NCBI GenBank assembly: GCA_963514005.1
Contig: OY740783.1
Coordinates: 64,790,001-64,854,000, forward strand
Direction of reading: 5' to 3'
Source: Raja brachyura
Lineage: Eukaryota
DNA: 64,000 nt
The notes beneath the pieces were generated by a model. It had not been told where the DNA came from and searched no databases. It saw nothing but the letters and a program-made list of their open reading frames with translations. The position numbers were made by a program, and so were the translations under genes. Numbering within the stretch: the first letter of the stretch is position 1; every line of letters starts with the position of its first letter. This document shows positions 52,696 to 52,980 of the stretch, in pieces.

Positions 52696-52980
52696 GTAGA
52701 CAAAAATGCTGGAGAAGCTCAGTGGGTGAGGCAGCATCTATGGAGCGAAGGAATAAGTGACGTTTCGTGTCGAGACCCTTCTTCAGACTGATGTGGGGGT
52801 GGGGGGGCGGGAACAAGAAAGGAAGTGGCGGAGACAGTGGGCTGTGGGAGAGCTGGGAAGGGGAAGGAGGGAGAAAGCAAGGACTACCTGAAATTGAAAA
52901 TGTCAATGTTCATACCGCTGGGGTGTAAACTACCCAAGCGCAATACGAGGTGCTCCTCCTCCAATTTGCGGTGGGACTCA
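52696..52980 (-). mobile_element. Penelope-like element 3' end: GIY-YIG endonuclease C-terminus, stop codon and pLTR
   Basis: 52979-52884 translates to ESHRKLEEEHLVLRLGSLHPSGMNIDIFNFR*, typical of the PLE GIY-YIG C-terminal E...GxN segment. Confidence 0.85.
52753..52792 (-). ncRNA. Minimal type-I hammerhead ribozyme motif within the PLE pLTR
   Basis: Minus strand: AUCAGU-CUGAAGA-A-GGGU-cucg-ACAC-GAAA-CGUC/ACUUAU; core CUGANGA and GAAA intact, GUC cleavage triplet, stem I 5/6 bp, stem II with one mismatch, palindromic ACGU stem III. Confidence 0.7.

Follow-up and report, generated by a model that had tools for sequence, protein, structure and literature searches.

A mismatched Penelope-like hammerhead in the sense strand of skate PTCH1 intron 2: probably an idle passenger

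Minimal hammerhead ribozymes (min-HHRs) have been described in the Penelope-like elements (PLEs) of metazoans (Cervera and De la Pena, 2014; PMC4209133). The monomers are inactive and the activity of the dimers is low, and an extra nucleotide that separates position 9 from position 10.1 is listed among the features of PLE min-HHRs. Approximately 4,000 copies were counted in the coelacanth and approximately 9,000 in Xenopus; cartilaginous fish are unnamed in the part of that text drawn upon here. In Penelope of D. virilis, helix I is 2 bp long and its 5' end coincides with the end of an intron (PMC4209133), and an internal promoter with an initiator has been reported (PMC2377424). Cleavage of PLE hammerheads as dimers is attributed to Lunse et al. 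(2017) in a review (PMC6765202). In Anolis carolinensis, the hammerhead of the Poseidon element PAc requires the PLE protein for cleavage, the element is copied mainly from unprocessed RNA, and RNA-seq gave no reads ending at the site (Frangieh et al., 2024; PMC11167929). Intronic hammerheads are also known in the RECK, CTCL and DTNB genes of amniotes, where they are ultraconserved in birds and mammals and possess tertiary contacts (PMC6155905). In the non-LTR retrozymes of Xenopus, more than 40% are intronic, many are monomers, and eight of nine tested dimers did not cleave (bioRxiv 10.64898/2026.07.22.740005). A literature search for ribozymes of skate Penelope elements found no paper.

A hammerhead of this kind was found at 52792-52753, on the minus strand, in a 64,000-nucleotide stretch of the Raja brachyura genome (the window). 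It belongs to the end of a PLE that lies in sense orientation in intron 2 of PTCH1 and carries a mismatch in stem II, and it is likely an idle passenger without useful cutting of PTCH1 RNA. All catalytic letters and the palindrome are kept in this copy, which counts against idleness. The element fragment and its parts are as follows.

52692-52980, minus strand: 5'-truncated Penelope-like element fragment of 289 bp, comprising the GIY-YIG ORF end, a pyrimidine-rich spacer, the hammerhead and a tail
52884-52979, minus strand: C-terminus of the GIY-YIG endonuclease, last 31 codons plus stop codon (52886-52884), recognized by similarity to the frame of the long element copy L205
52793-52883, minus strand: pyrimidine-rich spacer from the ORF end to the hammerhead, ending near CAG at 52790-52788
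52787-52792, minus strand: 5' arm of stem I, in which the A at 52789 corresponds to the point at which many young family copies begin, the putative start of the element RNA
52779-52786, minus strand: catalytic box CUGAAGA (52786-52780) and the extra A (52779) between positions 9 and 10.1
52767-52778, minus strand: stem II and loop 2 (GGGU-CUCG-ACAC), with a G-A mismatch at 52777/52768; the family majority has C at 52768
52759-52766, minus strand: GAAA box (52766-52763), palindrome ACGU (52763-52760) and GUC with C17 at 52759
52753-52758, minus strand: 3' arm of stem I, where U at 52756, in place of the C of the family majority, makes the third base pair
52692-52752, minus strand: tail to the usual 3' end of insertions, as set by the 3' ends of copies with a target duplication

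The 40 nt of the motif read exactly as quoted in the initial annotation. Both catalytic boxes and the GUC triplet that it claimed are present, and the loopless palindrome of stem III (ACGU) and the single G-A mismatch of stem II were confirmed. The distance from the stop codon of a GIY-YIG-like ORF, given there as about 90 nt, was measured as 92 nt. The predicted cut falls at 52759/52758. The CUGANGA and GAAA boxes with an NUH triplet, the extra nucleotide, the G10.1-C11.1 pair (G52778-C52767) and the palindromic 15.2-16.2 without loop 3 are all shared with the metazoan PLE min-HHRs, which likewise occur mostly as single truncated copies (PMC4209133). In contrast to those, the family has a stem II of 4 bp, against 7-8 bp in the Schistosoma families, with the PTCH1 copy's stem II broken, and stem I has 2-3 bp. 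Stem I consists of three contiguous pairs in the PTCH1-intron copy versus two in most family copies, the published range being 2-6, and it alternates between U-A and U-G among subfamilies. Helix II is fully paired in the family majority but broken here; thus, the family is a member of the min-HHRs and the PTCH1-intron copy is a damaged one. The identification of a PLE minimal type-I hammerhead with a loopless palindromic stem III is supported by the boxes, the extra nucleotide, the G10.1-C11.1 pair and the palindrome, and not by stem II.

Each of the other described systems resembles this locus in part. In the Poseidon element PAc, as here, the hammerhead is located at the junction of the pLTR and the ORF, copies derive (in the skate family probably) from uncut RNA, and there are two 3' ends approximately 30 nt apart (the tail), which in the skate family lie at 92-97 and 125 nt past the core start; unlike PAc, this family has a Cys linker before GIY-YIG, and the PTCH1 copy is without RT or ORF start (PMC11167929). 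The RECK-type hammerheads are similarly type-I motifs derived from retroelements and placed in the sense strand of a host intron. However, the PTCH1 copy has no stem III loop, a broken stem II and tens of thousands of paralogues, and it lacks the stable three-helix monomer with a contact between loops 1 and 2 that marks the RECK type (PMC6155905). The vertebrate non-LTR retrozymes are also hammerhead units derived from a PLE pLTR, whereas the PTCH1 intron contains one 5'-truncated PLE end, with ORF sequence retained and no tandem array (bioRxiv 10.64898/2026.07.22.740005).

The fragment (52980-52692) is 73-88% identical to 22 sister copies and differs from their majority at 12 of 289 columns. 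Two of these 12 differences fall within the 40-nt motif: the one at 52768 breaks stem II, and the one at 52756 adds a pair to stem I. Contig depth in four sequencing runs rises approximately 100,000-fold across 52692-52980, and about 94% of this depth carries the majority letter at both 52768 and 52756. L205 contains a 376-aa RT-thumb/GIY-YIG frame that matches PF01541 at E 2e-4, and the 31-codon remnant shares 63% identity with the C-terminus of this frame (E 8e-13). In the longer sister copies, Pfam searches gave RVT_1 at E 7e-5 and GIY-YIG at E 2e-4 and at 0.012; none of these matches reached its curated cut-off. The family shows the arrangement of EN+ Penelope-like elements, in which an RT is followed by a C-terminal GIY-YIG domain and the hammerhead lies in a pseudo-LTR after the ORF, together with 5' truncation, inverted ends and an optional tail of 30-40 bp. 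A C-x4-C-x2-C linker joins RT and EN in the longer copies L014, L043, L058 and L060. Such a linker (CX2-5CxxC) has been assigned to the Neptune and Nematis clades (PMC8557442), and its presence before GIY-YIG suggests that the family is of Neptune type rather than Poseidon. In the long copies L204 and L205 a proline/glutamine-rich repetitive stretch precedes the RT, and in L205 two tandem hammerheads 2,978 bp apart flank a partly deleted ORF.

No target-site duplication was evident at the junctions of the PTCH1 fragment, and no copy examined joined the flanks of this subfamily with an intact core. Contigs from four organisms, one possibly the source organism, enter the element from both unique flanks; the contigs break inside the repeat and none spans the hammerhead. 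The insertion is common to all four, and in one of them the flanks differ by approximately 5% (15 of 273 and 12 of 208 letters). The insertion therefore predates the split of these organisms.

The motif is extremely abundant. In 2.7 Gb of genome searched, the exact 28-mer with the stem II mismatch occurred 549 times and the same motif with a paired stem II 50,608 times, while the reversed-pattern control gave zero for each pattern; the motif is thus not due to chance. The mismatch at 52768 is a mutation away from the family majority. A looser pattern, consisting of the full core with a GGG/CCC stem II, matched 86,541 copies, again with zero for the reversed control, which exceeds the coelacanth and Xenopus figures quoted above, although the descriptors differ (PMC4209133).

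The exon in the window matches PTCH1 proteins, best those of cartilaginous fishes, with 88-90% identity to two shark proteins. Protein mapping placed the first three exons as follows, the first two being to the right of the window and given in window-equivalent coordinates.

68930-68757, minus strand: PTCH1 exon 1, from protein mapping
67630-67438, minus strand: PTCH1 exon 2, from protein mapping
44966-45156, minus strand: PTCH1 exon 3, from tblastn with two PTCH1 proteins; 3' boundary of intron 2, with the acceptor AG at 45158-45157

PTCH1 lies on the minus strand, with exon 3 beginning at 45156 and exons 1 and 2 beyond the window; consequently, the motif is in the sense strand of intron 2, as the initial annotation had proposed. 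This intron is approximately 22.3 kb long, and the hammerhead is 7.6 kb upstream of exon 3. It is the sole copy with a complete core in the PTCH1 span (68.9 kb, from the start codon). Two other features of the window were noted. Nested, broken LINE reverse-transcriptase and endonuclease fragments, which we take to be CR1/L2-like, occupy 3449-8303 on the plus strand, antisense to PTCH1. At 14861-15666 there is a low-complexity insertion, GC- and poly-G-rich, with long open frames on both strands and a weak Rfam match to MIR7533 that is far under the cut-off.

Six other copies in the window had been named as having damaged cores, and all six are indeed damaged in the core or in stem II. That list was incomplete, and at least five more were found, at 16600-16685 (+), 21013-21093 (+), 32361-32290 (-), 32368-32419 (+) and 52361-52301 (-). 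The copies other than the one at 52792-52753 are arranged as follows.

53201-53296, minus strand: nearest copy upstream, at a distance of 500 nt; it has lost G12 and its stem II is broken, so that it cannot act as the enzyme strand
52301-52361, minus strand: nearest downstream copy, 400 nt away; without the CUGANGA box
50293-50371, plus strand: damaged copy in intron 2, antisense
49720-49805, minus strand: damaged copy in intron 2, sense; GAAA box lost
43875-43963, plus strand: damaged copy, antisense
32290-32419, both strands: inverted pair of damaged copies
21013-21093, plus strand: damaged copy, antisense
19538-19618, minus strand: damaged copy, sense
16510-16685, both strands: inverted pair, damaged or truncated, joined at 16600

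The copy at 52792-52753 had been singled out as the only plausible active one. It is the best copy in the window, but with stem II broken its plausible activity is unsupported. No working cis partner was found from the PTCH1 start codon downstream to the end of the sampled span. In the pairs at 16510-16685 and 32290-32419 the element ends are joined inside or near the hammerhead, and inverted pairs are frequent in the family. Contigs also contain joints from 52789-52792 to 52690-52695 and from 52790 to 52757-52759. The former show other genomic copies arranged in tandem, as units of about 100 bp that reach from the start to the 3' end, and the latter show the core region (32-34 nt) duplicated in short tandems whose joint lies close to the cut site. 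These tandem units and core duplications elsewhere in the genome would be natural cis dimers.

Folding predictions were unfavourable for the PTCH1-intron copy. The stem II hairpin was predicted at +0.3 kcal/mol with the mismatch versus -3.4 when paired, a cost of about 3.7 kcal/mol. The probability of the G10.1-C11.1 pair was at most 0.0007 in five context sizes, the stem II pair probability was below 0.002, and stem III has no loop. In context, pairing was predicted between the upstream pyrimidine spacer and the purine-rich core. The monomer folds of intact family copies are poor as well (stem II probability 0.00-0.41), and the model contains no tertiary energy; hence, the folding argument is relative and only differences count. 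No data on stem II mismatches emerged from a literature search, and the effect of the mismatch therefore rests on the energy model and general hammerhead biochemistry.

In a double hammerhead, one strand provides the core and stem II, and the other provides the GUC strand. With an intact copy as enzyme and the PTCH1-intron copy as substrate, the predicted energy was +2.1 kcal/mol, the best of the four pairings tested. Two intact copies gave +5.7 kcal/mol and the remaining pairings +6.5 and +10.1, the last being that of the PTCH1-intron copy as a poor enzyme, relative to free strands. Since the partner supplies the core and stem II, the mismatch is irrelevant when the PTCH1-intron copy is the substrate, and since U at 52756 lengthens stem I from two to three pairs, this copy is a better predicted substrate than a young intact one. 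The complex nevertheless comprises only about 7 bp (4 bp of stem III and 3 bp of stem I), and even at 1 M its formation was predicted to be unfavourable. Eight control gene spans contain the 7-letter substrate word 97 times on their sense strand, and PTCH1 contains a relaxed word six times; the word thus confers no specificity. Activation in trans by transcripts of the family, as suggested in the initial annotation, could operate with the copy supplying only the GUC strand, but the complex is short and predicted to be unfavourable without protein.

Selection on intronic copies was assessed in eight large control genes, oriented by colinear PF01094 exon matches (1.57 Mb), which together with the PTCH1 span gave 1,638,930 oriented bases. 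These contained 70 motifs with a complete core. Stems of four pairs were present in 41 (25 sense, 16 antisense, p=0.21), and the other 29 had broken stems (15 sense, 14 antisense). An intact sense copy was present in seven of the eight control genes, and the sampled gene span contained approximately one intact sense-strand copy per 65 kb. No sense-strand depletion of intact motifs was seen in these 1.64 Mb (nine genes, 41 intact motifs), a sample in which weak selection would escape. Copies selected by their tail alone gave 652 matches, with 343 sense and 309 antisense (p=0.20); 268 without a recognizable ribozyme region were set aside and 384 were analysed. Of the 384, 42 were intact, and the strand ratio did not differ between intact and core-broken copies (p=0.24). 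The essential G5, A6, G8 and A9 were retained in 1326 of 1536 cases versus 327 of 384 for the free N7 (p=0.56). The essential G12, which lies in a CpG, was retained in 256 of 384, less than a free loop G also in a CpG (297 of 384, p=0.001). The hammerhead copies in this modest sample decay neutrally, with no selection on the core. In one copy of the C16 gene span (sense position 300309), a double change in stem II (U-A for G-C) restores pairing, and it affects the same pair that is broken in the PTCH1-intron copy.

The ends of young copies provide a fossil read-out of cleavage. If cut RNA served as template, copies would begin at the cut site. For the young subfamily, 314 copies were counted with a purine immediately preceding the cut site, versus 319 with one at a control CpG cytosine 3 nt upstream; there was no excess of young copies beginning at the cleavage site, in counts that pool point mutation and truncation. 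A small excess would be compatible with these counts. A non-family letter occurs just before the AGU that precedes the core in 4,573 copies, by a pattern that takes in a somewhat wider copy set. When 44 young copies were chosen on the core only, 13 extended upstream and 19 of the 31 others stopped 2-4 nt before the core, some inverted pairs being counted twice; 10 of the 44 were inverted and 21 were short. Immediately before the start, G was counted by hand in 52 of the first 100 copies listed, and 11 of 13 short copies that end 2-4 nt ahead of the core also have G there. Target duplications of at least 10 letters were found in 20 of 61 short copies, and a single clean untemplated G in only one of these 20. 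Most 3' ends of copies with a target duplication lie 92-97 nt past the core start, with two at 125, which resembles the pair of initiation sites that delimit the tail of the anole element (PMC11167929). Insertions of about 95-100 bp with target duplications of 10-20 bp are found, for example, at L001, L021, L084, L244 and L055, and some share 1-3 letters with the target at the 5' junction.

An initiator consensus and a precedent for cap-derived G are familiar from other systems. The ends of the young copies suggest that the element RNA starts at an initiator-like site, possibly with a cap-derived G. A literature search for untemplated G at PLE 5' junctions found no paper. A spliced-leader origin of the common 5' end was rejected, as the preceding letters differ between copies. 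The young copies were likely copied from uncut RNA. Cleavage products with a 5'-OH may integrate badly, and the fossil test is compatible with rare cleavage. In an active element, the motif would lie within the first ~31 nt of the RNA, whose first base would be the A located three bases ahead of the core. Reverse transcription would begin approximately 65-100 nt downstream of the cleavage site and copy uncut RNA. The motif would cleave only as a dimer and probably only with the element's own protein. This dependence would leave the PTCH1 fragment a lone, mismatched intronic copy without a cis partner or stable fold. The proposal of a plausibly active or regulatory PTCH1 ribozyme is unsupported, given the broken stem II, the 86,541 better copies, and the lack of sense depletion, core selection or a cut-site excess in the fossil record.

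Three other explanations were weighed against that of an idle passenger. That the motif is a chance look-alike, in a family without a real hammerhead, is scarcely credible. It would account for the result of the Rfam check recommended in the initial annotation, in which none of the seven matches at E<=10 in the whole window was a hammerhead family and the gathering threshold of such a family was reached nowhere, and for the two-pair stem I of most family copies. However, the boxes, the extra nucleotide, G10.1-C11.1 and the palindrome fit the published min-HHR definition, the motif is in the expected place after the GIY-YIG ORF, stem I alternates between U-A and U-G among subfamilies, and helix I of D. 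virilis Penelope also has 2 bp (PMC4209133). There is a small chance that any significance of the fragment for PTCH1 lies in a cryptic 3' splice site or a weak internal start and not in a ribozyme. On the sense strand, the spacer forms a pyrimidine-rich tract of about 90 nt that runs up to CAG at 52790-52788, and by these letters it resembles a 3' splice site of PTCH1. Initiator-like letters stand just before the core, many family copies begin at this spot, and the 5' end of helix I marks the end of an intron in D. virilis Penelope (PMC4209133). For a strong acceptor, depletion from the sense strand would be expected, and yet the 652 tail matches show no strand bias.

Of the ways in which the fragment might matter, protein-gated cleavage in trans is slightly less probable than a cryptic splice or start site and is itself highly improbable. 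Under this proposal, an expressed family RNA and its protein would pair an intact core with the GUC strand of PTCH1, cut the pre-mRNA and damp Hedgehog receptor output. The partner would supply stem II, in the best of the four pairings. Partners abound in DNA, and one young copy that is fully intact lies on the same strand, approximately 1.5 kb upstream of the PTCH1 start codon. Against this stand the recognition by about 7 bp, the unspecific substrate word and the missing sense-strand depletion. Cuts deep within introns, moreover, often leave splicing unblocked. The anole element bears on both sides, as its hammerhead is protein-assisted but RNA-seq gave no reads ending at the site (PMC11167929). 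An extension of this proposal, held to be just as improbable, is that intronic Penelope ends, in their tens of thousands, constitute a latent network of cut sites. De-repressed Neptune RNA, capped and with the hammerhead as its first 31 nt, would cut host pre-mRNAs in trans, at the GUC of these ends, with a protein chaperone. The PTCH1 copy, with its stem II lost and a third stem I pair gained, would be a pure substrate linking transposon activity to Hedgehog signalling, with the intact copy 1.5 kb upstream as a possible partner. Were such cutting of host introns in trans demonstrated, transposons would be seen to influence the output of host genes by a new route.

An idle PLE end remains the preferred explanation, and for PTCH1 the copy is very likely without consequence, since intact sense copies are tolerated at about one per 65 kb. 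The family is more useful than the copy, as its many insertions are a fossil record of PLE copying. The 5' ends that lie 2-4 nt before the core, often behind a G, suggest that the ribozyme is located at the capped start of the RNA and is dispensable for the template, which bears on the open question of the purpose of PLE hammerheads.

The intact young copy upstream of PTCH1 is located at L061 6438-6340, minus strand (window-equivalent 70438-70340), in the PTCH1 sense strand. It is about 99 bp long and has a 9-bp target duplication. An upstream first exon is known for human PTCH1. If such an exon exists in the skate, the L061 copy would be within the pre-mRNA and would be a better ribozyme candidate than 52792-52753. 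It lies between two perfect matches, at L061 5445 and 8935, to what we take to be a GLI-type motif, and nine near-matches to this motif were counted versus 1.5 expected.
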